A stretch of 64,000 nucleotides of DNA from Desulfobacteraceae bacterium UBA2156 (GTDB lineage: Bacteria; Desulfobacterota; Desulfobacteria; Desulfobacterales; UBA2156), in the NCBI GenBank assembly GCA_002328165.1, contig DCWS01000012.1, positions 8,225-72,224 of the forward strand, read 5' to 3'. Below, one piece after another: positions 38 to 41,428 of this stretch (position 1 is its first letter; every line of letters starts with the position of its first letter). A model generated the notes under the pieces. That model saw only the letters and a program-made list of their open reading frames with translations. It did not search any database and was not told the origin of the DNA. The position numbers and the translations under genes were made by a program.

Positions 38-1990
38 TCATTCTTTTAACGATTTTCTGGCCGCCAAACGCGCATTGAGCTTGGGAAACTGATTCATATC
101 GGTGTGGGGCAAAAACAGAGCAGCAACATAATTGTCCATGTAAGATCCGGTTTCAGACAGCTCAAAATTGGTCATCTTATTGGTTACCTCCACTACGTCC
201 TGCCGGATATGGTTTGTCAGTGAACTCATCTTCGCTCCCATCAAGGATCCATTGCCGATAAATTTGACCTTATCCGGATCTGTTTCTGGCAGAAGACCGA
301 TGGTCATCGCTTTTTCAAGATCCACATAGCTTCCAAACCCACCGGCCAGAAAAATATGATCGAGATCTAAAACCGTGAGCCCCACCTCCTCCAAAAGCGT
401 CATACAACCGCTGTACATTGCCCCTTTTGCACGGATCAGGTTATCGATATCCGGTTCGGTTAGAACGACATCTCTGTCGATCTGGGTCTCATCCTTCCAT
501 GCAAGCACATATTCGTATATCCCACCATCTTCACGAATCCGGGGGGTGTCCAGATCGCGGTCATATTTTCCGCTGTTATTAATGATATCCATCTCAAACA
601 GCGTCGCCACAATTATAATCAGACCGGAGCCGCAGATGCCTTTGGGTCCGACATTTCCAACAGTGATAATCATGGGTTCCAATGTATTAGGATCTACGGA
701 AAAATCTTCAATCGCCCCTTTGCTTGCCCGCATGCCATGTTTGATACCGCCCCCCTCGAAAGCAGGACCGGCTGAACACGCTGCACAGGCCAGCCAATCC
801 TTATTGCCGATCACGATTTCAGCGTTGGTGCCGATATCCATATATAACGTCAGTTTATCTGTCCGGTACATTCCGGACCCCATGACACCGGCCACAATAT
901 CGCCTCCCACATAACTCGAAACTTCCGGATAAACCAGCGCGGTGACGTGATCACTCAACGACATACCCAAACCGGCTGCTTTTATGGGAGGGTAAAGCGT
1001 TGAAGCCGGTACATAGGGCGAGCGACGAATGTACTTTGGGTTTATCTTGAGCATCAGTTGCGTCATTGTTGTATTTCCAGCCAGTGTAATGGTTGAAATT
1101 TCTTCAGGATCAACACCGGCACGATCTATAACCTTCTTGATGATGCTGTTAATCGTGTGGATCACCACTTGATGGAGTTTGTCAAGGCCTCCCGGTTTTT
1201 CCGCATACAGAATCCTGGAGATCACATCTTCCCCATAGCTTATCTGGCCGTTGAATGCGCCATACTGGGACAGTGCCTCACCGGTTTTAAGATCGATCAA
1301 TTGGCCATAGATCGTCGTGGTGCCGATGTCCATTGCAATGGCGTAGTTTCGATCAGTGGTATCTCCTGGTTGTACGTTGATGATCCGGGTCCGCCCTCCC
1401 TCTTCGCGAACGGGACGAGCCAGTGTTGCCGTAACCCTGAAGCCGTCCTTTCTCAGCACATCAGGAATTTTACGAATCACGGAAAGATCGACCTCAAGAC
1501 GGTGTTCATTGTGATTCAGCTTTAAAAGGCTGATAAGCCTTGTGGTATCCGCAAGATTATCCTGTAGTGACGGCGGGGGAAGCTCCAGGTATTTTTTTTC
1601 CACCGGTGGAATGAAAAGTCCTCTTTCTTTTAATTCCTCTAGATTCATTTCCTGGATTCGAGCGGTATGTCGCGGGGTGCTTTGAATATTGAGGATGTTT
1701 GAATCAATGGCTGACTCTATCGGAATGCGAATTACCAGATCACTTCTAACGGTCGCCAAACAGGCCTGCCGGTAACCGCTTTCAAGATCCGCTTTGCTCA
1801 AGTTTTCTGAAATACCACCCTCAACCTCACCCGCTTCAATGACCACACGGCACTTTCCGCAAACCCCGCCGCCACCGCAGGATGCATTGACATGAACCCC
1901 GGCTTCCATGGCGGCACGGATCAGATTTTCTCCGTTCCGGACGATTATTTTTTTGTTGTGGGGTAGAAACGATACTTGGTATTCATTCAT
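38..1990 (-). CDS. Corrinoid reductive activase-like protein (2Fe-2S ferredoxin domain + ASKHA/DUF4445 ATPase, RACo/COG3894 type)
   Basis: From ORF 38..2026. The N-terminus has a plant-type ferredoxin Cys cluster 'ASCGGGGVCGKCRV'. The C-terminal ~400 aa has actin-fold phosphate motifs ('AMDIGTTT', 'YMDIGTNAE', 'FLAGGFGSY'). Start moved to MNEYQV at 1990. Confidence 0.75.
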   Translation of the reverse strand: MNEYQVSFLPHNKKIIVRNGENLIRAAMEAGVHVNASCGGGGVCGKCRVVIEAGEVEGGISENLSKADLESGYRQACLATVRSDLVIRIPIESAIDSNILNIQSTPRHTARIQEMNLEELKERGLFIPPVEKKYLELPPPSLQDNLADTTRLISLLKLNHNEHRLEVDLSVIRKIPDVLRKDGFRVTATLARPVREEGGRTRIINVQPGDTTDRNYAIAMDIGTTTIYGQLIDLKTGEALSQYGAFNGQISYGEDVISRILYAEKPGGLDKLHQVVIHTINSIIKKVIDRAGVDPEEISTITLAGNTTMTQLMLKINPKYIRRSPYVPASTLYPPIKAAGLGMSLSDHVTALVYPEVSSYVGGDIVAGVMGSGMYRTDKLTLYMDIGTNAEIVIGNKDWLACAACSAGPAFEGGGIKHGMRASKGAIEDFSVDPNTLEPMIITVGNVGPKGICGSGLIIIVATLFEMDIINNSGKYDRDLDTPRIREDGGIYEYVLAWKDETQIDRDVVLTEPDIDNLIRAKGAMYSGCMTLLEEVGLTVLDLDHIFLAGGFGSYVDLEKAMTIGLLPETDPDKVKFIGNGSLMGAKMSSLTNHIRQDVVEVTNKMTNFELSETGSYMDNYVAALFLPHTDMNQFPKLNARLAARKSLKE

Positions 1991-2060
1991 CTTTGGTTTT
2001 CCCGCATTTGTTACCGGTTGCAGCAAACAACAGACATTGAGCGTGTAGGCTCAGTTAGTT

Positions 2061-9002: not shown

Positions 9003-9395
9003 GTGCATTCTCCTCCCCATGGGTTTAAATGATGGCAATGGCAACATCACCGGTTCAAAAATAACAGCGACGACCTCCGATTCACCGGGGAATTGCCAGC
9101 ATAGAAAACGCTTGTCTATTTTCTCGAAAAGAGGCTTAATTCCTACAGTAATAATAACTTATAAAATTGTAAAGTCACATTGTCAAGCGTCAGACAGTCA
9201 AATTTAAAAAAATCATCCCTTTCAAGGCGTTGCAAGTAAATAAAAGCTGATCCACCGATGAGATTTGAGCCTTTTTTGGAAAAAGACAGATGGAGTTTTG
9301 AGTGGCAAAAAATATTATGCCGTTTAAGATGCGCCCTGATGAAACCGTTTTATCCAGAATTGCCGTAACTGGTTCAAAAAGAACCACGTTTATCC

Positions 9396-11025: not shown

Positions 11026-11430
11026 ATGAAGAAGAATTCCTGGCGTATTGCTTGTGTGGGTGCGGGACTGATCGGTCAGGGCTGGACAACCCTGTTTTCT
11101 TCAAAAGGTTATCAGGTGATATTGCAGGATGTCAGCAAAACCGTCCTTGAAGGTTCGCTGAGAGCGATAAATAAAAATCTGATGTTTCTCGAAGCCAAAA
11201 CCATTTTGAAACCGGGTGAGTCTGCTGCGGCCATGAAACGAATAAAGACGACCAGGGATATTTCAGAATCGGCCGATTCAGCGGACTATGTCCAGGAGTC
11301 CGTTTTTGATGACCTTCAACTTAAAAGCCGGGTTTTTAAAGAAATTTTTTTAATTTCCTCTGCTTTTGGGGATGCGTTGACCGGATCACCCGGCCGGGTG
11401 AGTCCCTTTTCCAGAGGCCTTCCACGTTGA
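11026..11430 (+). pseudogene. 3'-truncated 3-hydroxyacyl-CoA dehydrogenase family gene (lambda-crystallin / L-carnitine dehydrogenase-like)
   Basis: Only the Rossmann N-terminus is recognisable ('IACVGAGLIGQGWTTLF', 'YVQESVFDDLQLKSRVFKEI'). Homology stops near 11340 and the tail is antisense read-through into the neighbouring gene. Confidence 0.6.
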
Positions 11431-11996
11431 AATACCGTAAGAAGAGGGAAGAGAACAATGAAAACGAGCCCTCCCAACAGCAGATATGCGTTTCGCCACC
11501 CTACTGTCTGTATGGCATATTGTATGAGAGGGATCAGAATAAGTGTTCCCATACCTCGTCCGGTGTTTGCAATGCCGAGCGCCAGAGCTCGGTGTCTAAA
11601 AAACCAGTTCGAGATGATAAGCACATTGGGAATGAAGCCGATATGAGTGACACCGGTGGCCATGAGGATTCCGTAAAAAACGTAAAGCTGCCACAAGGAG
11701 GAGATGAAACTCGAACTCAAAACCCCTATGGTGAGAACGATCACCCCAAACGGCATAACTCTACGTGAACCAAACCGGTCAAACAACCAGCCGACCAGAG
11801 GACCGCAGGCACTGAAGACAAGCATGCTAATGGAGTATGCCGCTGCCGTGTTAGCCCTGCTCCAGTGGAATTCCTCCAAGATCGCAAAAGAGCCATTGGT
11901 GGATCCCCCAACAGCCAATGTAAGGGAGGAAATCCCTACCACGACCCAACCATAAAAAAATCGAGATTTCCGATGAGTTGTCAGCGCTCCCCTCAA
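11316..11996 (-). pseudogene. 3'-truncated MFS transporter gene (N-terminal six-TM half only)
   Basis: 226 aa with 6 TM segments plus the central loop ('RGRPLEKGLTRPGDP'). The second half is missing and the ORF runs into the convergent dehydrogenase remnant. Confidence 0.6.
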
Positions 11997-28694: not shown

Positions 28695-29534
28695 TCATTC
28701 TTCCACCTTGCTTTTCCGGTGTTGAATATACGCATCCCGGAGCGCCTCATAGGGATCAATTGCAGCTTCTTTCAAGGACTCGTAATCACCCAGTCGGAAG
28801 GAGGTATCGTTTACGATCCTGTAACCATAGATACCAACCGCGGCTTCAACCGGTTCCATATAGGAAAGTGGGTTGATGAAGCTGTCTCCAAGCAAACCCA
28901 CTGAATCGCGCAGGGTGGATGGGCCCAGAAAAGGCCAAACGATATACACACCCTCTCCGATTCCATAGACACCTAAGGTTTGACCCAGATCCTCCTCACT
29001 TGGTTTTAAACGAGGATATCTCTTTGCCGGATTTCCAAAGCCGAGAATACCGAAGATGCTGTTCAACAGAAACCGATCGATTTCCGCATGAGCAGATTGC
29101 CACTTTCCTTGGAGGATGCAATTGGCCAAACGAATGGGGGTGGTTAGGTTGGTGAAAAAATTACTGACGCCAATTCGGGCAAGTTCTGGAACTACTACCT
29201 TATATGTCTTTGTAACAGGCTTGAGTATCCAGAAGTAAAATTTGTCGTTGAAGTGAAACATCCCTTTGTTCCAGAGCGATAGAGGATCCGGAACAGAGAT
29301 CTCATCTTCATCTTCGTATTCATCATCGTCAAAACTATCAGGGTCGTCGTTTTGATCAGCCGCATCATCCTCTGCGGGATTTGTTGACAACATTGAATTT
29401 CCCGTAGAAGCCAGCAGGTTTTGAATTTGATGAAAGGATGGATCTGCAAGAGATGGCGGAGGGTTTTCAGGAACAAGGGCACATCCAATCATGAATGAGA
29501 AAAGAAAAGAAAAGAACACGATTTGATGTTTCAA
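28695..29534 (-). CDS. mlaA: MlaA/VacJ family outer-membrane lipoprotein
   Basis: Lipobox 'MIGCA', an acidic linker, and the VacJ core 'FNDKFYFWILKPV...VSNFFTNLTTPIRLANCILQGK...FLLNSIFGILGFGNPA'. Confidence 0.8.
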   Translation of the reverse strand: MKHQIVFFSFLFSFMIGCALVPENPPPSLADPSFHQIQNLLASTGNSMLSTNPAEDDAADQNDDPDSFDDDEYEDEDEISVPDPLSLWNKGMFHFNDKFYFWILKPVTKTYKVVVPELARIGVSNFFTNLTTPIRLANCILQGKWQSAHAEIDRFLLNSIFGILGFGNPAKRYPRLKPSEEDLGQTLGVYGIGEGVYIVWPFLGPSTLRDSVGLLGDSFINPLSYMEPVEAAVGIYGYRIVNDTSFRLGDYESLKEAAIDPYEALRDAYIQHRKSKVEE

Positions 29535-29605
29535 GGGATGTGACGCTCCTCATATCAATTATTAATTAGCAGGGATAGAAGCGATTTCTTTTTCCACCGA
29601 TTCTC

Positions 29606-30226
29606 TTATTGTTGTGCGGTTTTCTTTTTTTGCGCCTCATTTTTCTTTTTCAGACGTTCGATTAATTGATCGGGGGATACTTTTCGGAGGATTTTTTTGA
29701 ACTGGGTCCGGTAGTTTTTTACCAGTCCCACTCCCTCGATGATAACATCGTAGATCTTCCATTTTTTCCCGTGCAGACGCAGGTGGTAGTTCATCGGGAT
29801 TTTACCGTTTTCCCGGACGATTTCGGTTTTTACAATCGCCTTTTTATCTTTGATAATTGCCTCACCCAGATAGACCACCCTTTCATCATGGTACTCTCCC
29901 TGTACCTTGTTCAGATAAATGTTTCCGAGGAGTGTGGAAAAAACATCAGTAAACCGATCCCGTTGGCCGGAATTAAAGCGCTTCCAGTTGCGGGCCAGAG
30001 ATCGCTTGGACATCTCCCGAAAATCAAAGATCCCCCGTATGATCTTCCACAGTTCTTCCCGCTGGACCTCTTTTTTGTCTTTTTCACGGTATTGGGGGTC
30101 TTTTAGGATGCTGACGATTTCATTCATCGGTTTCTGCAGCGTTTCCATCGGCGGTGTGCCATGGACCAATGTCGTCATCCCGACAAGCATCAGAACCAGT
30201 GATAGCCCAAGCCATTTCGTGATCAT
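29606..30226 (-). CDS. mlaC: MlaC/Ttg2D periplasmic phospholipid-binding protein
   Basis: Signal peptide, then 'FDFREMSKRSLARNWKRF', 'YLNKVQGEY' and 'WKIYDVIIEGVGLVKNYRTQF'. Confidence 0.8.
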   Translation of the reverse strand: MITKWLGLSLVLMLVGMTTLVHGTPPMETLQKPMNEIVSILKDPQYREKDKKEVQREELWKIIRGIFDFREMSKRSLARNWKRFNSGQRDRFTDVFSTLLGNIYLNKVQGEYHDERVVYLGEAIIKDKKAIVKTEIVRENGKIPMNYHLRLHGKKWKIYDVIIEGVGLVKNYRTQFKKILRKVSPDQLIERLKKKNEAQKKKTAQQ

Positions 30227-30264
30227 TGAACCTCCTGTTGCTGTGTTACGGGTGGTTCGAGTTA

Positions 30265-30711
30265 TTAAACCCCGCCAAACACATATTTGCTGACCATCTC
30301 TTCCAAGTCAAGGGCGGACTCGGTTTCAGTTATCAGGTCTCCGGGTTTAAGAATCTCATCGGACCCACCCGACGAAAGTTTGATATACTTGTCTCCGATT
30401 AATCCGGCCGTTTTGACCGAGGCGATCACATCGTCGGTTAAAACCACTTCATTTTGTATTTTCATCTCAACAACGGCAATCTGCTTTTCGAGATCCAGTG
30501 AGATATCGGCAATATGGCCAATCTGAACCCCTGCCATTTCTATTTGGCCGCCTTTTCTGAGGCCGGTAATGGAATCGAAGTTGGCGAAGATAGAATAGTG
30601 ATTTTGGCCGATCCAATCCATTTGCCCCAGCTTGACGGTCAGGTATCCGACACATGCGATGCCGATCAAAACGAAAATACCGACACATGTATCAATGGTC
30701 GTTTTTTTCAT
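30265..30711 (-). CDS. mlaD: MlaD (MCE domain) protein
   Basis: From ORF 30265..30723. Start set at MKKTTIDTCVGIF with GGGAGG upstream. There is one TM segment and the MCE core 'GLRKGGQIEMAGVQIGHI'. Confidence 0.8.
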   Translation of the reverse strand: MKKTTIDTCVGIFVLIGIACVGYLTVKLGQMDWIGQNHYSIFANFDSITGLRKGGQIEMAGVQIGHIADISLDLEKQIAVVEMKIQNEVVLTDDVIASVKTAGLIGDKYIKLSSGGSDEILKPGDLITETESALDLEEMVSKYVFGGV

Positions 30712-30725
30712 AACGCCTCCCAAGC

Positions 30726-31940
30726 CTAACTAACAATGAACTCATAAAATGAATTCGTTATCGACTCTGCGCTGGCAAGCACATCGCCGATGGTTTTTTC
30801 TTTTTTTATCTCCTCATAGCCCGCGGTGACCGTAAAGCAGAATCCAGGATAGGGCTGAACCTCCAAAATTTCATTCCCCTTCAACTGGTCAGCCAATTTA
30901 GCGCAGAACATCCGGGCCTGTTTCAAGTTCGTGTTGGGGAGAATAACCATAATTTTATCCCGGCCTGCCCGGGAACAGGCGTCGGAAATACGGATGCGAT
31001 TCTTAACCTGTGTGGCAAAATTTATCAGTACGGTTTGAGCAGCGAGATGCCCCATTTCCCGAGAAATTTCATTTAGATTTTCCAATTTAAAAAGAACCAG
31101 GGAAAAGAAGGTGTTATGCCGGAGCATCCGAGCCACTTCTTCCCTGAACTTTTTTTCCATCTGGAGCTGGGTGGGCATTCCGGTCAGCCCGTCCTTTGGG
31201 GTGTCCAAACCCCGGATAAAATTCCGCACAACCGGATCCGAAGTATTACCGATTTCTTCCGGAGTTCCTTCAAAGACGATCCGGCCCTCATTCAACATGG
31301 CGATCCGTTGTGAAATGTAGAAAATATCCGGTATCTCATGGCTGACCATCACGCCGGTAAATCCAAACTTTTTCTGATAATCGGAAATCATGTGGTGCAC
31401 GGTTGTTTTGCGGATCGGGTCGAGGCCGGTGGTCGGTTCGTCAAAAAGGATAATCTCCGGATCCGTGACCAGCGCCCTTGCCAGGGCGATCCTTTTTTTC
31501 ATCCCCCCTGAGACCTCGGAAGGAAATTTGTGGTCAATCCTACCCAGGTCGAGCTGTTTCATTCTTTTCTTTACTCGCTGGTGAACCGCCTGTTCGGAAA
31601 ATGCTCCCCTCTCCCTCAAGGGGAGTGCGATATTATCAAAAATATCCAGCGAATCGAAAAGAGCCGTACTCTGGAACAGGTAACTGAATTTATGTTTCAG
31701 CTTCCTTTTCGCACGGTTATTCATCTCGGAAAGCGTCTTTCCACGAAAAAGGATTTTGCCTGAATCCGGCTCGATGAGACCGATGATGTGTTTGAGCAGG
31801 ACGCTCTTCCCCACCCCGCTTTTCCCGATGATGGTGGAAATCTCCCCCTGAAAAATACTGAGATCGGTTCCTTGCAAAACAGGCTGGCCACCAAATTTCT
31901 TAAAGACATTTTGAAATTGAATCAGTGGTTGTTTCATCAT
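30726..31940 (-). CDS. mlaF: MlaF-type ABC ATPase fused to a C-terminal degenerate GGDEF domain
   Basis: Residues 1-245 carry Walker A 'GKSGVGKS', signature 'VSGGMKKR', Walker B 'ILFDEPTTGLD' and H-loop 'VSHE'. Residues ~250-404 are colinear with the GGDEF fold (see the domain feature). Confidence 0.8.
   Translation of the reverse strand: MMKQPLIQFQNVFKKFGGQPVLQGTDLSIFQGEISTIIGKSGVGKSVLLKHIIGLIEPDSGKILFRGKTLSEMNNRAKRKLKHKFSYLFQSTALFDSLDIFDNIALPLRERGAFSEQAVHQRVKKRMKQLDLGRIDHKFPSEVSGGMKKRIALARALVTDPEIILFDEPTTGLDPIRKTTVHHMISDYQKKFGFTGVMVSHEIPDIFYISQRIAMLNEGRIVFEGTPEEIGNTSDPVVRNFIRGLDTPKDGLTGMPTQLQMEKKFREEVARMLRHNTFFSLVLFKLENLNEISREMGHLAAQTVLINFATQVKNRIRISDACSRAGRDKIMVILPNTNLKQARMFCAKLADQLKGNEILEVQPYPGFCFTVTAGYEEIKKEKTIGDVLASAESITNSFYEFIVS
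30729..31193 (-). other. Degenerate GGDEF-like domain of MlaF (A-site lost, RxxD I-site retained)
   Basis: 'DGLTGMPT', 'FSLVLFKLENLNEISREMGHLAAQTVL' and 'RISDACSRAGRDKIMVILPNT' align with the canonical 'DxLTGLxNR', 'DxDxFKxxNDxxGHxxGDxxL' and 'RxxDxxxRxGG(D/E)EFxxxLP'. RISD is at 30981-30992 and GRDKI at 30951-30965. Confidence 0.65.
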
Positions 31941-31943
31941 CTC

Positions 31944-32741
31944 TTACAGAAAAAAGGATGTCAATATATAATCGACTATAAGGATTAGGACACAGGAAGT
32001 CACCACGGCGGCGGTTGTCGCACTGCTAACCCCCTCAGCGCCGAATTTCGCCCGGGTGTGGGTAAAAAACCCCTGAAAACAGCATACCGTGACAACCACG
32101 GCGCCAAAAACAATCGATTTGATGAAACCGCTGGCAATGTCCTCCATTAAAACAGCGGATTCAACCCTGAAAAAATAAGTGCCGGGATTGATGCCGAGCA
32201 AAACCGAACCGCTGACATACCCGCCGAAAATGCCCACCACGTTAAAAAGGGCGGTCAATAAGGGAAAACTGATCACCGCAGCAGCGAACCTGGGGCTGAC
32301 CAGATACCGTATCGGGTTGATGTCCATGGTTTCGAGGGCATCGATCTGTTCGGAGATTCTCATGATTCCAATTTCCGCGGCTATGGACGACCCGGCTCTT
32401 GCAATCACCATAATTGCAGTCATCACCGGCCCCATTTCGCGGATCAGCGAAAGGGCCACGGCCGCACCGAGCAACCCCTCAGAGCCAAATTGCACCAGGG
32501 TGTAATATCCCTGGAATCCAAGTACCATTCCCGTGAATGTACCGGTCAAAATGATGACGAAAATCGATTTCGTCCCAATAAAATAAATCTGTTGAACGGT
32601 CTTTACAATCTGCAAGGGAAAAGAAAAAATATAGAAAAAGCCCTGAAAAAAAAAGACAGCAACACTTCCAAGCTCTCGAATTTTTAAGACGGTCAGTCTA
32701 CCCAGAGTGGACAAGGAATTTTTCAATATTACAAAGTTCAT
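31944..32741 (-). CDS. mlaE: MlaE ABC permease
   Basis: 265-aa polytopic protein with 'REMGPVMTAIMVIARAGSSIAAEIGIMRISEQIDALETM', diagnostic of the MlaE/Ttg2B family. Confidence 0.85.
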   Translation of the reverse strand: MNFVILKNSLSTLGRLTVLKIRELGSVAVFFFQGFFYIFSFPLQIVKTVQQIYFIGTKSIFVIILTGTFTGMVLGFQGYYTLVQFGSEGLLGAAVALSLIREMGPVMTAIMVIARAGSSIAAEIGIMRISEQIDALETMDINPIRYLVSPRFAAAVISFPLLTALFNVVGIFGGYVSGSVLLGINPGTYFFRVESAVLMEDIASGFIKSIVFGAVVVTVCCFQGFFTHTRAKFGAEGVSSATTAAVVTSCVLILIVDYILTSFFL

Positions 32742-32976
32742 TTCGGATGGCCAATAGACTGCTTACGGATTCAGTTTTTCCGTTATATCTTTTTAATTTT
32801 ATTAAATAAAACATAGAAAAACACACTTTTAGTGTCAAGAATAAAGCTTCACAATGGTTCATTTTTTCCCTTGCCCTCAAACCGCGATGGGTGCTAAAAT
32901 TTTAAAATGATGTTACATCAGTTTGTATAATTGTGCGATCTGTTCGACGAATCATCGACCAGAGGGTAATCGGATC

Positions 32977-33117
32977 ATGTCTTTTTTTCATCATTTTCTT
33001 CAGATTATCCGGGATTATATTTTTAATCGGCTTGAAACATCGCGTGAATCTTATCGACATAGAATCTACAATGATCTGAACAAGTTGTATGAGTACATCT
33101 GGAAAGGAAATTGTTAA
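32977..33117 (+). CDS. Possible 46-aa leader ORF abutting mttB-1
   Basis: GAGGG lies 9 nt upstream of ATG 32977, and the stop TAA (33115-33117) directly abuts the ATG of the MttB gene. TATAAT at 32926-32931 could serve as a -10 element. No family recognised. Confidence 0.2.
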   Translation: MSFFHHFLQIIRDYIFNRLETSRESYRHRIYNDLNKLYEYIWKGNC

Positions 33118-34581
33118 ATGAGAACAAACTATCGAATCAATTCAGGGATACGATTCAACGTGTTGTCAAAAGATCAATTGCAGGCCTTATTTGATGGCGT
33201 GCTTCACCTTCTGGAGTACACCGGTCTTGACGTACATCACGAAGAGGCGCGTGACATTCTCCAGAAATCCGGCGCAACAATAGAAGGTCTCAGAGTACGC
33301 ATACCTGCCTATCTGGTGAAACGCGCTTTGCAGATGGCACCCCGGAGCTTCACCATCTTTGCACGCGATGGAAATCCCGATCACGATATTCACATCGGCC
33401 CAGGCCGGGCATACTTTGGTCCGGGCCCGACCCCCCCTAATTTCATTGATGTAGAGACCCTGGAGCGACGACCCTTCCTAAAATCCGATGCACGCATTGT
33501 AGCAAAAGTGGTGGATGCCCTTCCAAACATCGATTTTTGTGAGTCGCTGGGTACGATCAGTGACGTTCAATTTGAACTGGCAGCCAGCTATGAATTTGCA
33601 GAAATGTTTCCCAATACTAGTAAACCGATCGTGGCCTGGTCCTACGGGTGGGACGATTCGGAGGACATCCATAAAATCGCCGTTGCCGAGGCAGGGGGGC
33701 AGGAGGCATTTGAAAAACGTCCCAACTATATCCATTACTGTGAACCGCTGTCACCGCTGGTGAGTACATTCGAGGCGGTTGACAAACTCATTTTTGCGGT
33801 CAGACATCGGGTACCTCTGATATTTACCCCGTGTCCCTTGGCCGGAGGGACTGCACCGGTGACAGCGGCCGGCATCATCATCCAGTCAACGGCCGAATCA
33901 TGGATGGGGCTGGTTCTTTCCCAGACCATCCAACCCGGCATCCCTTTTTTCATGGGAGGGGTTCTATCGGTAATGGATATGAGTGACATGATACTTTCCT
34001 ATGGTGCACCCGAACTGTCCCTGATGATGGCCGGCAGTACCGAATTGGCCCATTACGCCGGTATCCCTCTTTGGCAAACAGGGGGCTGCACTGATTCTAA
34101 AGTGCTCGACGAACAGGCTGCGCTCGAAGGCTCACTTTCTTGCTTTTTTTCTGCACTGACAGGCGGCGATCTGTGCCACGACGTTGGATACACCGAGAGC
34201 GGAATGACTGGCTCTATTTTACAAACAGCAATGATGGACGAAGCAATCGGCTATTCGCGCCGTATAACACGGGGTATCGATGTTAACGACGAAACATTAG
34301 CCACCAACGTCATCCATAAGGTCGGTCCCAATGGGCACTATTTGTATGAAAAACACACGCGCCGACATTTCAAGAGTGAGTACTGGTACCCCAATCTATG
34401 TGATCGGCACAGTTTTGAGGAGTGGGAAAAGAAGGGACGTACAACCATGCGCGATAGGGTCATTACGCGGGTTCAAGACATCCTGGGCACTCATCAAACC
34501 TCTCCCATTAAACCGGACACAGAGGCGGCGATCAGGGAGGTTCTGGAAGCAGCTGAAGACCGGGTTAAGAAATCCGCCTAG
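33118..34581 (+). CDS. MttB-superfamily methyltransferase, non-pyrrolysine type (quaternary-amine:corrinoid methyltransferase candidate), paralogue 1
   Basis: 487 aa. The N-terminal 'LSKDQLQALFDGVLHLLEYTGLDVHHEEARDILQKSGA' and the overall length are typical of the MttB family. The ORF is uninterrupted with no in-frame TAG. Confidence 0.8.
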   Translation: MRTNYRINSGIRFNVLSKDQLQALFDGVLHLLEYTGLDVHHEEARDILQKSGATIEGLRVRIPAYLVKRALQMAPRSFTIFARDGNPDHDIHIGPGRAYFGPGPTPPNFIDVETLERRPFLKSDARIVAKVVDALPNIDFCESLGTISDVQFELAASYEFAEMFPNTSKPIVAWSYGWDDSEDIHKIAVAEAGGQEAFEKRPNYIHYCEPLSPLVSTFEAVDKLIFAVRHRVPLIFTPCPLAGGTAPVTAAGIIIQSTAESWMGLVLSQTIQPGIPFFMGGVLSVMDMSDMILSYGAPELSLMMAGSTELAHYAGIPLWQTGGCTDSKVLDEQAALEGSLSCFFSALTGGDLCHDVGYTESGMTGSILQTAMMDEAIGYSRRITRGIDVNDETLATNVIHKVGPNGHYLYEKHTRRHFKSEYWYPNLCDRHSFEEWEKKGRTTMRDRVITRVQDILGTHQTSPIKPDTEAAIREVLEAAEDRVKKSA

Positions 34582-34618
34582 GGGCCTGTATCGGACTCGA
34601 ATCAAAAGGAGAATTACA

Positions 34619-35260
34619 ATGAGTACAATTTATCAGCAATTGTCAACGTCCATCATTGATGGAGATGAAGAGAAGACTCCCGAGTTAGTCCGGAAAGCAT
34701 TGGATCAGGGATTGGCACCCGTAGAAATCCTGGACAATGGGCTTCTTCTTGGAATGAACAAAGTGAGCCGCCGATTCGAACAAGAGGAAATGTTTGTACC
34801 CGAAGTGCTGTTGGCGGCCAAAGCTATGCATGACGGTCTAGAAGTGTTACGACCCCATCTGATTGCTACCGGAACCAAGCCGATCGGTAGGATTGTTCTG
34901 GGCACCGTAAAAGGCGACATCCACGATATCGGTAAAAACTTGGTCGGCATGATGTGCGAAGGTGCTGGCTTTGAAGTGATTAATCTGGGCTTTGATGTAG
35001 ACCCCGAGAAATTTATAGAGGCTGTCAAGGAAAATCAGCCGGATATCATTGGCATGTCAGCGATGCTGACCACAACGATGATCACCATGGGTTATACCAT
35101 TAAAGCCTTAAAAGAAGCGAATCTGCGCGATTCGGTAAAAGTGATCGTTGGTGGTGCTCCCGTCGATTCCGAAACTGTCGAGCGGATCGGCGCTGATGGG
35201 TATGCCTACAATGGACCCACTGCGGTTAAATTGGTAAAGCGTCTATTAGACGTGGCCTAG
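34619..35260 (+). CDS. Cobalamin-binding corrinoid protein (MtgC/MttC-like)
   Basis: Start set at MSTIYQQ (AAAGGAGAA upstream). The ORF-track start 34331 is an in-frame extension. It has a B12-binding-2 cap helix region, 'GDIHDIGKN' (DxHxxG), 'MSAMLTTTM' and 'VGGAPV'. Confidence 0.85.
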   Translation: MSTIYQQLSTSIIDGDEEKTPELVRKALDQGLAPVEILDNGLLLGMNKVSRRFEQEEMFVPEVLLAAKAMHDGLEVLRPHLIATGTKPIGRIVLGTVKGDIHDIGKNLVGMMCEGAGFEVINLGFDVDPEKFIEAVKENQPDIIGMSAMLTTTMITMGYTIKALKEANLRDSVKVIVGGAPVDSETVERIGADGYAYNGPTAVKLVKRLLDVA

Positions 35261-35522
35261 CCTATGGGAGCTGACGACAACAGCCAGAACGAACTAGAAG
35301 CATATCGGCCTCAAGCACACAAAGTTGCCCACTATTATGAGCAGTAGGGTCTGCACTACGAAGAGATCCTCGGCGCCGATGAATATGTGCGCTGTCTGGT
35401 CGATGTGGCTAGCATGACAGACAAAACTGACGACAATTTTGCAATAATTCCGTCTGGTGGAGAGATCCGACAGGAACAATTCATACGTCAATAAGGCGTA
35501 AGCAACATAAGGAGAACCGATT

Positions 35523-37025
35523 ATGCAAGTACACAGGACGAATTATCAGATAAACGAAACGCCAACGCTCCAAGTACTTACCGAAGATCAGATCGAAGCT
35601 ATCTATTATGCTGCTCTACGGGTGTTATATGAAACAGGGGTTCGCGTATATGACAAAGAAGGCGTTGAAGTTGCCTATTCCGGTGGCGCAATTGTGGAGG
35701 ATAAAACCGATGAGAGTCACTTGGTGCAAATTCCGCATTGGCTGGTAGAAAAGGCGCGGGTCACCGTGCCGAGCAAGGTAGTTCTCGCTGGATTCGACCG
35801 AAAGTACCGTATGGAACTTTACAAAAACCAGATCTATTTTGGAGGTGGCTCAGACACACCGTTTACCCTTGATCCTTACACAGGAAAACGGCGACGTACT
35901 ACGTACCGAGATGTGAAAAATATTGCTCGGCTGGCGCAGGCGTTACCCAACTTAAACTTCCACATGTCCTTGGGGATTACCCAGGACACCGCTGTAAGTA
36001 CATACGACCGCTGGCAATATTTGGCCATGGTAGAGGGGACCAGCAAGCCGATCAATGTCACCGCTGTAGACGCCGAAGGCCTGGGTGATATCCTTGAAAT
36101 GGCTCACATCCTGGTGGGCGGTAAGGAAGAGTGGCGGAAAGGCCCGACATTTTCAATTTATATCGAGCCTGTATCGCCGTTGAGCCACACTAAAGAGGTC
36201 GTGCAAAAGCTTCTGTTTGCCACCGACAACGACATTCCCTGTGTCTATACGCCCTGTCCACTTGCCGGTGCGACGGCACCAACCACTTTGGCTGGTTTAC
36301 TGGTACAATCCCTGGCTGAAAGCCTGTTCGGTATTGTGATCAGCCAGATACGAAAACCAGGGGCTCAGATCATCATCGGCGGTTTGATGTCAAACATGGA
36401 TATGAAAACCGCCACCTATACATACGGCTCCCCGGAGATGGCCCTGATGAGCGCTGGTTACACCGATATCACCAAATGGCTGCGAGTGCCGATGTATGAA
36501 ACAGCCGGATGCTCCGATGCCAAGCTTTTCGACGAGCAATCGGTGATGGAGGCGACGATCAACATCTCCACCGCCGCTCTCATCGGTGGCAACATGATTC
36601 ATGATGTGGGTTATCTTGACTCGGGCTTGACCAGCTCAATGGAGCAGATGGTCGCTGCCGACGAAATCATTGATATGGTGAAGCGCATTTTGCGGGGCAT
36701 TCCTGTGAACGACGATACAATGGCCCTGGATGTGATGGGTGCTGTTGGCCCGAGTGGCCATTTTATGGAACACAATCACACCTACAACCACTTTAAGAAC
36801 GAAATTTGGCGGCCAAAGCTGATTGATCGTCAAAATTGGGAGGACTGGACCCACTGCGGAAGCAAACGTTACGGCGAACGGGTCCACGATCGGGTGATCA
36901 AAATACTGGAGACCGAAACAGAGCCCCTCCTGAACGAAGCAACTTACAAGGAGCTGAGCCGCATCTGTGAACTGGCCGATACTCGTCACAAAGACGAAGA
37001 GCTCGATGTAAAGATGTTTGTGTAG
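35523..37025 (+). CDS. MttB-superfamily methyltransferase, non-pyrrolysine type, paralogue 2
   Basis: 500 aa and colinear with paralogue 1 ('LTEDQIEAIYYAALRVLYETGV', 'YTPCPLAGATAP', 'HDVGYLDSG'). No in-frame TAG. Confidence 0.8.
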   Translation: MQVHRTNYQINETPTLQVLTEDQIEAIYYAALRVLYETGVRVYDKEGVEVAYSGGAIVEDKTDESHLVQIPHWLVEKARVTVPSKVVLAGFDRKYRMELYKNQIYFGGGSDTPFTLDPYTGKRRRTTYRDVKNIARLAQALPNLNFHMSLGITQDTAVSTYDRWQYLAMVEGTSKPINVTAVDAEGLGDILEMAHILVGGKEEWRKGPTFSIYIEPVSPLSHTKEVVQKLLFATDNDIPCVYTPCPLAGATAPTTLAGLLVQSLAESLFGIVISQIRKPGAQIIIGGLMSNMDMKTATYTYGSPEMALMSAGYTDITKWLRVPMYETAGCSDAKLFDEQSVMEATINISTAALIGGNMIHDVGYLDSGLTSSMEQMVAADEIIDMVKRILRGIPVNDDTMALDVMGAVGPSGHFMEHNHTYNHFKNEIWRPKLIDRQNWEDWTHCGSKRYGERVHDRVIKILETETEPLLNEATYKELSRICELADTRHKDEELDVKMFV

Positions 37026-37267
37026 ATTCGGCCGATCGCCCCAACCCGTTGCACAGCGCCGGCAAACGGCTCCATGCCGGTGCATTCGATTAGGAGGGCA
37101 GCGATACTGGGGTGTTTTTGGTAAAATTCACCGCAGATGTGGCTCATATCTTTTTCAGCCCTGTCGTAATAACTTTCGGGAACTTCCGGACGTTTTTCGG
37201 GGTTCCAAAGATTGTCAAACTCCGGGCACTCATATTCTTCCTCCGCCCCGGTTTTTTTCGAATCCAA
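36986..37267 (-). pseudogene. Gene fragment, possibly the C-terminal third of an Asp/Glu-racemase-superfamily protein
   Basis: 'HPSIAALLIECTGMEPFAGAVQ' resembles the 'xxLECTNMPPYAxAVQ' motif of that superfamily as I recall it. Only about 80 codons remain, and the tail overlaps the 3' end of mttB-2. Confidence 0.25.
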
Positions 37268-37306
37268 CGCTCCATGTTTTCAGAAGATTTTCAACAAGTG
37301 ACCAAG

Positions 37307-37555
37307 CGTGAAATTGTGCTGGAAGAAAACCTGCCCAGCGCTATAAACCCTCCCAAAGGCTGCCCATTTTGTACCCGCTGCCCGCGGAGAATTGGCGATA
37401 TTTGTGATAACGATCCGCCGCCGGAGCAGGTCGTGGTAGATCGGCACGTCATCAAATGCCATATACCGATCGAAGAGTTAAGCAAGGTGGAGCCCGTAAT
37501 CCATGTGCCGGATGCTTCAGAGCGTCTCCAAAAACCGGTGGCGGTCGGTCAATAA
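37307..37555 (+). pseudogene. Fragment: C-terminal domain of an oligopeptide/dipeptide ABC transporter ATPase (OppD/F-type)
   Basis: 'LPSAINPPKGCPFCTRCPRRIGDICDNDPP...HVIKCH' matches the Opp/Dpp C-terminal Cys motif. The whole NBD is missing upstream. Confidence 0.5.
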
Positions 37556-37603: not shown

Positions 37604-37996
37604 TCATTTGACTGTAACCACCAAGCATGGCGCATTCAGGATGACATACTGAGCAGTGGAACCGAGGATTAATTTGCCGACTTTTGATCTTCTTCTAACT
37701 CCGATAATAATTTCATCAATAGCGTTGTCTTTCGCGAATTGAACCAGATCTTCCCCTGGAGACAGGTAATTAACGGATGCATGTGTTTCACATGAAATAT
37801 CATCTGTGTTGAAGGATGTTCTTAGATATTCCAGCTTGCCTTCCGCTTTATCAATATCTTCTTTTTGCAACGTATGACTTTGTTCCAGTGAGGTTACTAT
37901 AAAAATATCGGCCTTAAAGGCATTCGCATGTTTTTGAGCTATCTTCAGAGCATCTTCGGCTACCTTAGAACCGTCATAACCCACCAGTATTTTCAT
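37604..37996 (-). CDS. Universal stress protein (UspA family)
   Basis: 130 aa with 'MKILVGYDGS' and 'IIIGVRRRSKVGKLILGSTAQYV' (ATP-binding G-x2-G-x9-GS). Confidence 0.8.
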   Translation of the reverse strand: MKILVGYDGSKVAEDALKIAQKHANAFKADIFIVTSLEQSHTLQKEDIDKAEGKLEYLRTSFNTDDISCETHASVNYLSPGEDLVQFAKDNAIDEIIIGVRRRSKVGKLILGSTAQYVILNAPCLVVTVK

Positions 37997-38361: not shown

Positions 38362-39493
38362 ATGAGTCTATGTGTCAAAAATGATGTTTACTGGGCAGGT
38401 AAAATCGATTGGGAGCTTAGAAAATTCAATGGTGACGAGTATTCCACCCATCGGGGATCGACCTACAATCCATACTTAATTAAAGAGGAAAAAGTGGCCC
38501 TGATCGATACTGTTCGGGCGCCTTTTTCGAAGGAATTTATAACCAATCTTGTCAAGAAAATCGACCTTAGGAAAATTGACTATGTGATAGCCAACCATGC
38601 AGAGATCGATCACAGAGGCGCGCTTCCAGAATTAATGCTATATATTCCCGACACGCCAATATATAGTACGAAAAACGGCATCAATTCATTGAGAGGACAT
38701 TATCATCAGGATTGGAATTTTAATGTTGTTAAAACCGGCAATCGCCTGAGCTTGGGGCCAAAAGAACTGCTTTTCATTGAAGCCCCGATGTTCCATTGGC
38801 CAGACAGCATGTTTTGCTGTTTGACTGAAGATAATATGCTCTTCAGCAATGATGGGTTCGGGCAGCACTATGCTTCCGAATATATGTTCAATGATCTTGT
38901 TGATCAATCGGAGTTGTTCAATGAGTGTATGAAATATTATGCGAATATACTAACCCCCTTCAGTCCCATGTTTATTAAAAAGGAAAAAGAAGTCCTCGGC
39001 TTTAATCGCCCCTTGGATATCATCTGCACCGGTCACGGGGTAATATGGCGGGATAACCCCCGGGCAGATCGTTGAACAGTACCTGGAATAGGCTGGTAAT
39101 TATCAAGAAAACCAAATTACCATTATTTATGACACCATGTGGAACAGCACTCGACTGATGGCCGAAAATATTGCCGAGGGAATACAAAACAGCGATTCAG
39201 AGGTCAGCCTAAAGCTATTTAATTTGTCGAAAACAGATAAGAACGATGTTATCGCTGAAGTCTTCAAATCCAAGGCGATTCTAGTCGGGTCCCCAACTAT
39301 CAACAGAGGAATCTTGGTTCCGGTTGTTATGAGTGGAGTGGAGAATCGGTCAAGATTATCAGTGCGTTATTATAAGGAATGCGGATTTGATGTTGGCGGT
39401 GAAGGTTTGCGAGTAATGTGGAACCCTGATAGTGAAAGTATGGCAAAATGTTTTGAATATGGAAGACAATTTTCTTTAAATGTTTCTGTTTAG
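38362..39493 (+). pseudogene. Flavodiiron protein (NorV/FprA-type) pseudogene
   Basis: Colinear with flavorubredoxin-type FDPs ('HAEIDH', 'HWPDS', 'SNDGFGQHY', '[10 protein letters not shown]', 'ITIIYDTMWNSTRLMA'). There are three lesions: a +1 frameshift in a C5 run (39057-39061), an in-frame TAG at 39089-39091, and about 20 codons missing from the flavodoxin domain. Confidence 0.8.
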
Positions 39494-40591: not shown

Positions 40592-41428
40592 CTACATTAG
40601 TCTTCCTGCTTCGCCAGTTGTGTTAAGCTTTGGATAATAACAGGCGATACTCATTCCAAAAAAAGAACCTGTACACAATAGCTGAAATAAGAAGTCTTGA
40701 GTTTGCTCAAAAGTCAAGCCATTTGAAGTTGGGATGAGAACCGGCACAAGACTCGGGTCAATGACGTCTACGTCGAAATGCAGCCACAAAGGCAGTTCGG
40801 AAGTTACCAGGTGACTCAATCCTTCTTTGGCTGATTGTGTGATGCCGATTTGGACCATCTGTTCTTTGGTGTAGACCTGTAGATTTGATTCAGCGATGAG
40901 ATCTGGCTCGCGCAAACCATAAACTATTATATTTTCGTCAGATATTAATGGGCATTTTTCAAACAGCGCGGTGATTTCTTCAGATCCACGACCTGTTAAA
41001 AATTCGAGTTCGCAATCAGCAGTCTCACCTGTTGGCGATGTTTCTTTGCTGTGAAAATCTGCAGGGCCGTCAAAAAATATAAGACCGACACTAATGTCCC
41101 TGGCCGCGAAAGCGTCAGAAATACCGATGAGGATTGCGCAGTTACCGCCGAGCACAATTGAGAACTCGTTTGGGCCCAGAGTTTCATTGAGTTTTGCTGC
41201 AAGCCGACGGGCAGTCTCTTGTAATGCGCTTAGATTCAAAATGCATGTCTGTTTGTCTCGCTAGCCTTCTGGTTTCGGAATTGCAATATCGCCATAATCC
41301 GTAACGGAGTGTCCCTTTGATTTCAACAAAGTAGTCAGCCCGGTATTGCGAAGAACTTTTGCCGGGTTCTCTTCTTCCGGGGTTGTACCGTCACTATTAA
41401 ACGGTACGCCAAGTAAGCTAATCTTCAT
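40592..41428 (-). pseudogene. Arginase/ureohydrolase-family gene with an in-frame TAG and degenerate metal ligands
   Basis: Translation from ATG 41428 gives 'MKISLLGVPFNSDGTT...AIPKPEG*RDKQTCILNLSALQ...'. The TAG is at 41261-41263. 'GGNCA' replaces GGDHS, 'FDGPADF' replaces DAHxD, and 'HFDVDVIDP' is retained. Confidence 0.6.

Follow-up and report, generated by a model that had tools for sequence, protein, structure and literature searches.

The stretch of DNA considered here (64,000 nucleotides of contig DCWS01000012.1 from Desulfobacteraceae bacterium UBA2156, assembly GCA_002328165.1; hereafter the window) carries a trio of genes on its forward strand: two encoding members of the MttB superfamily (mttB1 and mttB2, with products B1 and B2) and, between them, one encoding a corrinoid carrier protein (Table 1). 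An earlier note, made from the sequence letters alone, had described MttB-like open reading frames (ORFs) of 487 and 500 amino acids on either side of a 213 amino acid protein bearing the motif GDIHDIGKN, and coordinates and Pfam matches confirm this description. The subject of this account is what the three genes do and what has become of the genes that accompany them elsewhere.

Table 1 Features of the window (positions are those of the window; MT1, substrate:corrinoid methyltransferase; aa, amino acids)
Feature	Position	Strand	Details
mttB1 (B1 family, MttB-superfamily MT1)	33118-34581	+	487 aa; PF06253 E=9e-91
Corrinoid (B12-binding) carrier gene, Cor(b) type	34619-35260	+	213 aa; PF02607 and PF02310; DIHDIG at residues 100-105
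mttB2 (B2 family, MttB-superfamily MT1)	35523-37025	+	500 aa; PF06253 E=1e-97
'Leader ORF', 5' stub of Peptidase_C92 gene	32977-33117	+	~44 codons
Deletion junction	33102-33111	+	microhomology GAAAGGA(G/A)A, 9-10 bp; base-by-base comparison with both L008 flanks
DUF1638 pseudogene remnant	35279-35488	+	C-terminal ~70 codons; TGG to TAG at 35345-35347, a conserved Trp
Asp/Glu-racemase-like gene remnant	37043-37279	-	tblastn E=3e-33 to L014 protein, residues ~160-234
Probable Opp/Dpp-type ABC ATPase tail	37300-37555	+	oligo_HPY PF08352 E=8e-4, below gathering cut-off; weakly supported
Candidate RACo/RamA-type reductive activase gene	38-2026	-	ATP-dependent type; 2Fe-2S and ASKHA; PF14574, PF17651, PF17650, PF00111
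Mla lipid-transport operon	28695-32741	-	
MlaF-type ABC ATPase with C-terminal GGDEF	30726-31940	-	
Usp gene	37604-37996		
Flavodiiron-type protein, first ORF	38362-39075	+	237 aa; ODP/metallo-beta-lactamase
Flavodiiron-type protein, second ORF	39137-39493	+	118 aa; no Pfam match
Arginase-family ORF	40592-41239	-	215 aa; profile positions 66-263 of 280
Half-length MFS transporter gene	11316-11996	-	226 aa; profile positions 9-187 of 347

All three genes start with ATG, preceded by a good Shine-Dalgarno sequence, and none contains an in-frame TAG, TGA or TAA. B1 and B2 match PF06253 with 304.8 and 327.4 bits (gathering cut-off 25) over positions 30-491 and 22-489 of the 500-position profile, and in phmmer searches of the PDB both align over approximately residues 7-487 to 2qne/9yce, 7xcl and 4yyc (E 1e-44 to 1e-63; the PDB sequences were taken from HMMER alignments, with lengths and the four MtgB residues discussed below verified). 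Against TIGR02369, the equivalog for pyrrolysine (Pyl)-containing MttB, they reach 372.1 and 408.4 bits, below the cut-off of 525. The corrinoid protein combines a B12-binding_2 cap (PF02607, 80 bits) with a Rossmann B12-binding domain (PF02310, 102 bits), its DxHxxG sequence being the DIHDIG of the motif mentioned above. Its best NCBIfam matches are MtgC_2 (214 bits, cut-off 370) and TIGR02370 (206.1, cut-off 215.3); like MtbC (188, cut-off 350), both remain below cut-off. The identification of B1 and B2 as non-Pyl MT1-type enzymes of the MttB superfamily with a cognate corrinoid carrier is thus supported.

That neither mttB gene contains an in-frame TAG and that both end at one, as the earlier note pointed out, is correct, although the TAG stops carry no signal: TAG closes all three genes of the trio but is also the stop codon of 14 of the 47 genes in the window, and orthologues of the trio use all three stops. 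Pyl read-through at these stops was ruled out, since it results in short nonsense tails and the stops of the orthologues vary. In two sister-strain loci (L008, at 9270-9314, and L058) the mttB1 stop (34579-34581 in the window) is CAG and is accompanied by a 1-nt indel, so that mttB1 there is 13 residues longer (500 amino acids) and overlaps the start of the corrinoid gene (ATGA); B1 orthologues are typically 485-487 amino acids long, that of the window included.

B1 and B2 each have a large orthologue family of their own, with members at least 78% identical, in metagenome-assembled genomes (MAGs) of Desulfobacterales and Chloroflexota. The surroundings of the pair were tabulated for 52 genome loci with a B1 orthologue, a feature being counted only where the contig leaves room for it. 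The canonical order is Pterin_bind (a methylcorrinoid:tetrahydrofolate methyltransferase, MT2)-[GntR]-Cor(a)-B1-Cor(b)-DUF1638-B2-HydA-like ASKHA protein (~668 amino acids)-GntR/FCD-RACo. B2 lies downstream of B1 at 43/43 loci and Cor(b) is present at 42/43; DUF1638 separates Cor(b) from B2 at 32/43 and is missing from the other 11/43, whilst the HydA-like gene, Cor(a) and Pterin_bind are found at 30/32, 36/45 and 29/38, respectively. A reciprocal scan of metagenomes, starting from B2, found B1 upstream at 40/40 loci. B1 and B2 are an obligate pair in fixed order, at 83/83 testable loci, and this strict pairing, together with the usual presence of two corrinoid proteins, points to one two-step pathway rather than to two independent substrates.

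Set against the canonical order, the window retains B1-Cor(b)-(DUF1638 remnant)-B2 only. Its corrinoid protein is 56-72% identical to the Cor found between B1 and B2 elsewhere and 51-58% identical to the upstream Cor(a). No tblastn match to HydA, GntR, Cor(a) or Pterin_bind was found within the 64 kb, and a Pfam scan of ORFs of at least 150 amino acids, together with tblastn, detected no Pterin_bind, URO-D or MtrH-type MT2 in the window, in agreement with the earlier note, which had seen no methylcorrinoid:tetrahydrofolate MT2 there. The activase candidate that it had placed 31 kb from the trio is also real, in the form of a RACo/RamA-type gene (Table 1), which is only 33% identical to the cassette-linked RACo of locus L006. 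The window holds the bare core of a larger conserved cassette; this lineage has lost DUF1638, the HydA-like gene, GntR, Cor(a) and the local MT2, and the missing MT2 and accessory genes reflect this loss and not the native design of the system.

As to the lost components, DUF1638 has been proposed to act, together with RamA, in the reductive reactivation of cobalamin (PMC12478193). Among ASKHA ATPases, the HydA-like protein has its relatives in oxoprolinase and hydantoinase A subunits; it could be a reactivase or, by analogy with MthK (PMC12155760), a substrate activator. In seven Anaerolineales cassettes a second HydA-like paralogue, 47-52% identical to the first, follows RACo some 19-20 kb into the locus, and in locus L004 a protein of ~278 amino acids with a weak 4Fe-4S match precedes RACo; these may be extra parts of the reactivation machinery. 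Orthologues of B1 and B2 from Desulfobacterales share 70-84% identity with those from Chloroflexota (Anaerolineae, Caldilineae, Promineifilaceae), far more than vertical descent between phyla would lead one to expect; this suggests either that the cassette was transferred horizontally or that it is under extreme constraint. The cassette is also present in the Delta-3 symbiont of Olavius algarvensis, and a Planctomycetaceae MAG carries B1 and B2 at 45-49% identity in a different gene order.

Four scars mark the losses around the trio. The 262 nt that separate mttB2 from the corrinoid gene (35261-35522) house a remnant of DUF1638, overlooked in the earlier note, with tblastn matches at E=2e-24 and 2e-21 (48-53% identity) to the intact DUF1638 of L004 and L002. 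Upstream of mttB1, that note had suggested a 46-codon leader ORF whose TAA is directly followed by the ATG. The ORF and the TAA-ATG junction are present, but not the leader role: the ORF is collinear with, and near-identical to, the N-terminus of a 272/282 amino acid Peptidase_C92 gene in sister strains L008 and L009. Compared with L008, L009 and L058, to which it is 94-96% identical at the nucleotide level, the window lacks 713 bp (L008 7083-7795) comprising most of the C92 gene, and of the two microhomology copies at the deletion junction one lies within the C92 gene whilst the other is the Shine-Dalgarno sequence of mttB1. As L008 shows, the TAA-ATG belongs to the native upstream region of mttB1. 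A leader peptide, an attenuator and translational coupling could all be ruled out, the ORF being a C92 stub confined to this strain group.

On the other side of the trio, homology to the sister strains stops at 37042, just past mttB2. Sister strains continue there with a DAP-epimerase-like gene, a URO-D-type MT2, a third MttB of the type that keeps the substrate-binding arginine of MtgB (Arg-type; see below) and an Opp-type ABC transporter. The window instead has the remnant of an Asp/Glu-racemase-like gene, full-length versions of which (~262 amino acids, with a weak PF01177 match for the full protein) lie near the cassette elsewhere, and the probable tail of an ABC ATPase gene; comparison of this tail with the partial ATPase of L008 gave a chance-level match, the L008 locus ending before the relevant part. 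Two further genes of the window, the arginase-family and MFS genes (Table 1), are apparently truncated, and with the four scars they suggest that gene loss is ongoing in this genome.

The genes found here in sister strains belong to a second module that recurs beside B1-B2 in Desulfobacterales (L008 11708-15296, L010 18356-21503 and L074). It comprises the DAP_epimerase-like gene (293 amino acids), the URO-D-type MT2 (341) and the Arg-type MttB (470, with the residues Y-R-V/L-H-M), the Opp-type transporter following in L008, and is probably a separate quaternary-amine system. The module is absent from the window.

The active sites of B1 and B2 can be compared with two well-described enzymes. 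In MtgB of Desulfitobacterium hafniense, glycine betaine is bound by Y97, R312, H348 and F356; R312 is essential (the R312L mutant is inactive) and conserved in MtcB, MtpB, MthB and MtyB, whilst Y97 and F356 form an aromatic pair that makes cation-pi contacts with the quaternary nitrogen (PMC13080624). The residue corresponding to Y97 is P104 in B1 and S110 in B2, R312 is replaced by W319 and Y325, and F356 by G362 and G368; H348 has its counterparts in H354 and H360. Conserved G-x-P and D-x-K motifs flank the R312 position, and no gap interrupts the alignment between them. The active site of Pyl-containing MttB from Methanosarcina barkeri is framed by Gly110, Met249, Pyl334 and Tyr364, of which Gly110 and Tyr364 are 100% conserved among Pyl-MttB proteins (PMC9842639). 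Both B1 and B2 place Gly, Cys, Cys and His at these positions, and an invariant Asp takes that of Gly365; the Pyl334 position is Cys324 in B1 and Cys330 in B2. The Trp or Tyr at R312, the Cys at Pyl334 and the His are invariant in 240/240 database orthologues (120 of each family), and the Met249 position is Cys in 119/120 of each. The complete signatures read G101/C239/Y295/W319/C324/H354/D355 in B1 and G107/C245/Y301/Y325/C330/H360/D361 in B2. The two pockets differ from each other at several positions, among them W319 versus Y325, P104 versus S110 and C353 versus I.

In a neighbour-joining tree (62 sequences, 468 columns, 200 bootstraps; MtpB, MtcB, MtyB and MthB not included), MtgB and 4yyc group with the Arg-type paralogues of the same genomes in a clade of bootstrap 100 from which B1 and B2 are excluded, and Pyl-MttB is sister to this clade with bootstrap 99. 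B1 and B2 form separate families, each with bootstrap 100, that are not sisters of one another. Judged by tree and alignment, B1 and B2 lie outside the characterised quaternary-amine (Arg-type) clade. The general rule on which the earlier note had drawn, that non-Pyl MttB proteins are quaternary-amine enzymes, cannot be transferred to proteins that lack both R312 and the Y97/F356 pair. On the other hand, its view that the two MttB proteins are divergent and not a simple duplication has held up: they do not cluster with MtgB, and with 38% identity and separate, non-sister families of bootstrap 100 they are not recent duplicates. When 1.84 billion cluster representatives were searched with a profile, 13,147 from the MttB superfamily were retrieved at E<=0.001, among which the wider class with Gly110, an aromatic residue at 329 and His364-Asp365 is large and diverse.

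Several known systems resemble the trio in part. MtgB (PDB 2QNE/9YCE, with partners MtgC and MtgA) shares with B1 and B2 the superfamily and fold, independence from Pyl, a B12 carrier partner and H348; alignments are full-length (218 bits for B1, 188 for B2) and the expected chemistry, methylation of Co(I), is alike. Identity is only 28-29%, however, three of the four glycine betaine-binding residues are changed, Leu317 is replaced by Cys, and B1 and B2 fall outside the Arg-type clade to which MtgB belongs. Pyl-MttB (PDB 7XCL, with MttC) is the best PDB match of B2 (215 bits) and has in common with the pair Gly110, an aromatic residue at 329 (Tyr in B2) and a Gly at the position of MtgB F356. 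It differs in that B1 and B2 have no UAG or Pyl (Pyl334 being Cys), carry His-Asp for Tyr364-Gly365 and Cys for Met249, are 29-30% identical to it and score below the TIGR02369 cut-off; in the tree Pyl-MttB groups with the Arg-type clade and not with B1 and B2. In Eubacterium limosum MtpB, MtcB and MtyB likewise constitute several MT1s with one carrier (MtqC), the MT2 (MtqA) and activase (RamQ) being encoded elsewhere in the genome, whilst MthB has its own carrier, MthC, and its own MT2, MthA. Compared by description, these four enzymes differ from B1 and B2 in retaining the R312 equivalent and using acidic quaternary amines, and their genes are dispersed and individually induced.

Closest in architecture is a glycine betaine-induced cluster of 'Ca. 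Formimonas warabiya' DCMF (Ga0180325_114734-42), with the order CoP-MTI485-CoP-MTI488-HydA668-MTII-MtgB471-OpuD x2, CoP being corrinoid protein and MTI and MTII the two methyltransferases (PMC9768040). DCMF strips methyl groups from glycine betaine in steps, giving dimethylglycine first and sarcosine next; the cluster is syntenic in Sporomusa ovata (its first half) and 'Ca. Frackibacter', and several MTI/CoP pairs were proposed to serve successive substrates, glycine betaine and dimethylglycine (PMC9768040). The DCMF cluster shares its architecture with the canonical cassette of the relatives; it differs in its Firmicutes host, in having no reported DUF1638 and in its BCCT/ProX betaine transporters in place of Liv-type ones, and compared with it the window has lost HydA and the second CoP. 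Finally, the split MetH/MtgBCD system of Ruegeria pomeroyi and Phaeobacter inhibens also brings together a Pfam06253 MT1, a corrinoid protein, a pterin-binding MT2, a RamA-like protein and DUF1638 (PMC12478193). It belongs to aerobic Alphaproteobacteria, its genes are dispersed and it is linked to methionine synthesis, whereas in the window DUF1638 is a pseudogene remnant.

Hints as to the substrate come from the neighbourhood of the cassette, where a Liv/HAAT amino-acid ABC transporter, EamA, GntR/FCD, CBS proteins, an ornithine cyclodeaminase-family protein and DAO recur, joined at individual loci by PutA, SSF symporters or YbaK-like proteins. At 17/49 long loci a paralogue bearing the entire MtgB motif [YF]-R-H-[FY] lies next to the cassette. 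At nine Desulfobacterales loci a free-standing YbaK/ProX-like 'tRNA_edit' protein (~150 amino acids) is encoded just upstream of the cassette, and in L006 this gene is adjoined by those for PutA and an SSF symporter; these neighbours hint at possible proline-related substrates. Such hints would favour N-methyl amino acids over betaines.

On balance, we regard the locus as the stripped core of a widespread, conserved corrinoid-dependent demethylation cassette, and think it probable that B1 and B2 serve one pathway with predicted N-methyl amino acid substrates. In the proposed mechanism B1 and B2 would be anciently diverged MT1 enzymes, each of which would take a methyl group off a small N-methylated substrate and load it onto the Co(I) of the intervening B12 carrier. 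A separate MT2, encoded outside the window, would pass the methyl group to tetrahydrofolate; in the canonical cassette this is the Pterin_bind enzyme, and in sister strains an adjacent gene encodes one of URO-D type. Oxidised Co(II) would be rescued by a RACo-type activase. B1 and B2 are always found together and in the same order, which speaks for one pathway, and the likeliest arrangement would be that they act on one compound at successive stages of its methylation. This compound could be dimethylglycine (via sarcosine to glycine), glycine betaine (via dimethylglycine to sarcosine) or a different N-methyl amino acid; a pair of unrelated quaternary amines appears less likely.

A number of points weigh against this reading. 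Dimethylglycine and sarcosine carry a carboxylate and the MtgB-type Arg is missing from B1 and B2, so that a different binding mode would be needed. Since the window has no MT2, completeness of the pathway in this organism is not demonstrable from it. Every B1 or B2 orthologue found comes from MAGs or metagenomes (none of 20 family representatives looked up had a cultured organism as its source) and the family is biochemically uncharacterised. The deep nodes of the neighbour-joining tree are weak (bootstrap 26-51), and conservation of the Arg in MtpB, MtcB, MtyB and MthB, which stand outside the tree, is taken from PMC13080624. In the wider His-Asp class Cys occupies the Pyl position in 60 of the top 150 families, other, sister families having A, S, T, G, N or H instead, which weakens any catalytic claim for it. 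Lastly, the likeness to the DCMF and Sporomusa clusters is drawn from gene order and protein length.

With so much lost around it, the trio might be seen as a decaying relic, in which pseudogenisation is under way following the loss of DUF1638, the HydA-like gene, the regulators and the adjacent MT2 cluster. The scars that surround and interrupt it, the further truncated or split genes in the window and the lack of an MT2 in 64 kb all fit such a fate, but the genes themselves do not. The three ORFs are intact and retain good Shine-Dalgarno sequences, and family-invariant columns (at least 98%) show 0 deviations at 207 positions in B1 and 233 in B2. The ratio of non-synonymous to synonymous substitution rates (dN/dS) against three relatives is 0.06-0.07 for mttB1, 0.07-0.09 for the corrinoid gene and 0.05-0.07 for mttB2, whilst for the flanking mlaE, mlaF and thiF it is higher, at 0.16-0.29. 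In a comparison with L001, a locus that shares all of the deletions, the trio diverges by 0.6-0.9%, with 20 synonymous versus 6 non-synonymous changes, and the scars by 2.3-2.4% (the DUF1638 remnant by 2.3%), that is, three to four times faster. By these measures the trio is intact and under strong purifying selection despite its lost accessory genes. At least 24 contigs, which come from many samples and include TARA Oceans scaffolds and MAG GCA_030746515.1, moreover have the stripped arrangement as a fixed feature, and DUF1638 is missing from several other lineages as well. That the trio is a relic is highly improbable.

The other alternatives accept that the trio works and concern the division of labour within it. 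The earlier note had proposed two MT1s that share one carrier and feed two substrates into one methyl pool, B1 and B2 being independent quaternary-amine:corrinoid methyltransferases. Part of this is supported: the enzymes are divergent (38% identical, with the pocket differences described above), in this lineage a single corrinoid gene lies between them, and sharing of a carrier is established in E. limosum, where MtpB, MtcB and MtyB use MtqC (PMC8604678). The part that fares badly is the two substrates, since co-occurrence in fixed order at 83/83 loci is unexpected for independent enzymes, the E. limosum MT1 genes being scattered and separately induced. Most loci (36/45) furthermore have two corrinoid proteins, both enzymes lack the R312 and aromatic pair used in quaternary-amine binding (PMC13080624), and the linked transporters are of the Liv/HAAT amino-acid type and not of the BCCT or OpuA betaine types; we consider the proposal unlikely. 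The same strict pairing could instead reflect assembly, with B1 and B2 forming one heteromeric enzyme (a heterodimer or higher oligomer) for a single substrate. MttB and MtgB are indeed dimers in which a C-terminal loop completes the rim of the partner's active site and contacts the corrinoid protein (PMC9842639; PMC13080624). Both B1 and B2 keep a complete active-site signature under equal constraint, however, so that neither resembles a degenerate scaffold, and the two corrinoid proteins of most loci suggest two catalytic units; hetero-oligomerisation seems quite unlikely.

The host of the stripped locus seems to be a cosmopolitan marine population and not just a sediment dweller. Five contigs (L151-L155) with a Usp gene identical to that of the window carry the stripped locus and ~20 kb of synteny. 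The arrangement recurs in TARA Oceans scaffolds (ERZ2773064), in JGI 3300020361 and 3300035250 and in the MAG named above, and the Usp protein is found in 72 index blocks. A search via the Usp gene for fuller sister-strain context returned only contigs with the stripped arrangement.

Beyond the trio, the window has an Mla lipid-transport operon upstream on the opposite strand, in which a GGDEF (diguanylate cyclase) domain forms the C-terminal part of the MlaF-type ABC ATPase through gene fusion, an unusual architecture that is kept in L008, L058 and L151-L155. Downstream of the trio, the Usp gene is followed by a flavodiiron-type protein apparently split over two ORFs with a 61-nt gap. The split (237 + 111/118 amino acids) is seen in all of L151-L155 and in L001, and is thus fixed in the population and not a sequencing error. 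No tRNA genes were detected in the window and no Rfam families or riboswitches reached gathering score in the 64 kb, whilst a promoter and terminator scan stayed near the shuffle expectation (promoters 8 versus 6.3±2.4).

To our knowledge, the characterised non-Pyl members of the MttB superfamily all demethylate acidic quaternary amines and remove one methyl group only, and most of this very large superfamily is without a known substrate. B1 and B2 are a concrete candidate for the steps by which anaerobes, independently of both O2 and Pyl, might remove the methyl groups still left on dimethylglycine, sarcosine and N-methylproline. Tentatively, and with rather less confidence than we attach to the cassette as such, B1 and B2, and perhaps the whole class with an aromatic residue at 329, Cys at 334 and His-Asp, might be Pyl-independent corrinoid methyltransferases for non-quaternary methylamines, namely tertiary and secondary N-methyl amino acids of this kind. 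The Cys, Cys and His-Asp at Met249, Pyl334 and Tyr364 would then form a site that, through a metal or acid-base chemistry, activates the leaving amine; a zinc site formed by Cys239, Cys324 and His354 is speculation, the Cys at position 334 giving way to A, S, T, G, N or H among sister families. If this were so, the pair together with an MtgB-type enzyme would make up a complete anaerobic, B12-dependent route from glycine betaine to glycine, operating in marine Desulfobacterales and Anaerolineae. The duo is sharply delimited, by a distinctive active-site signature and an accessory set of DUF1638, HydA-like ATPase, pterin-binding MT2 and RACo, and widely distributed, in sediment Desulfobacterales, in Chloroflexota and in a cosmopolitan marine population sampled by TARA Oceans. 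For the superfamily at large it counsels caution: non-Pyl MttB proteins should not be annotated wholesale as quaternary-amine or glycine betaine methyltransferases.

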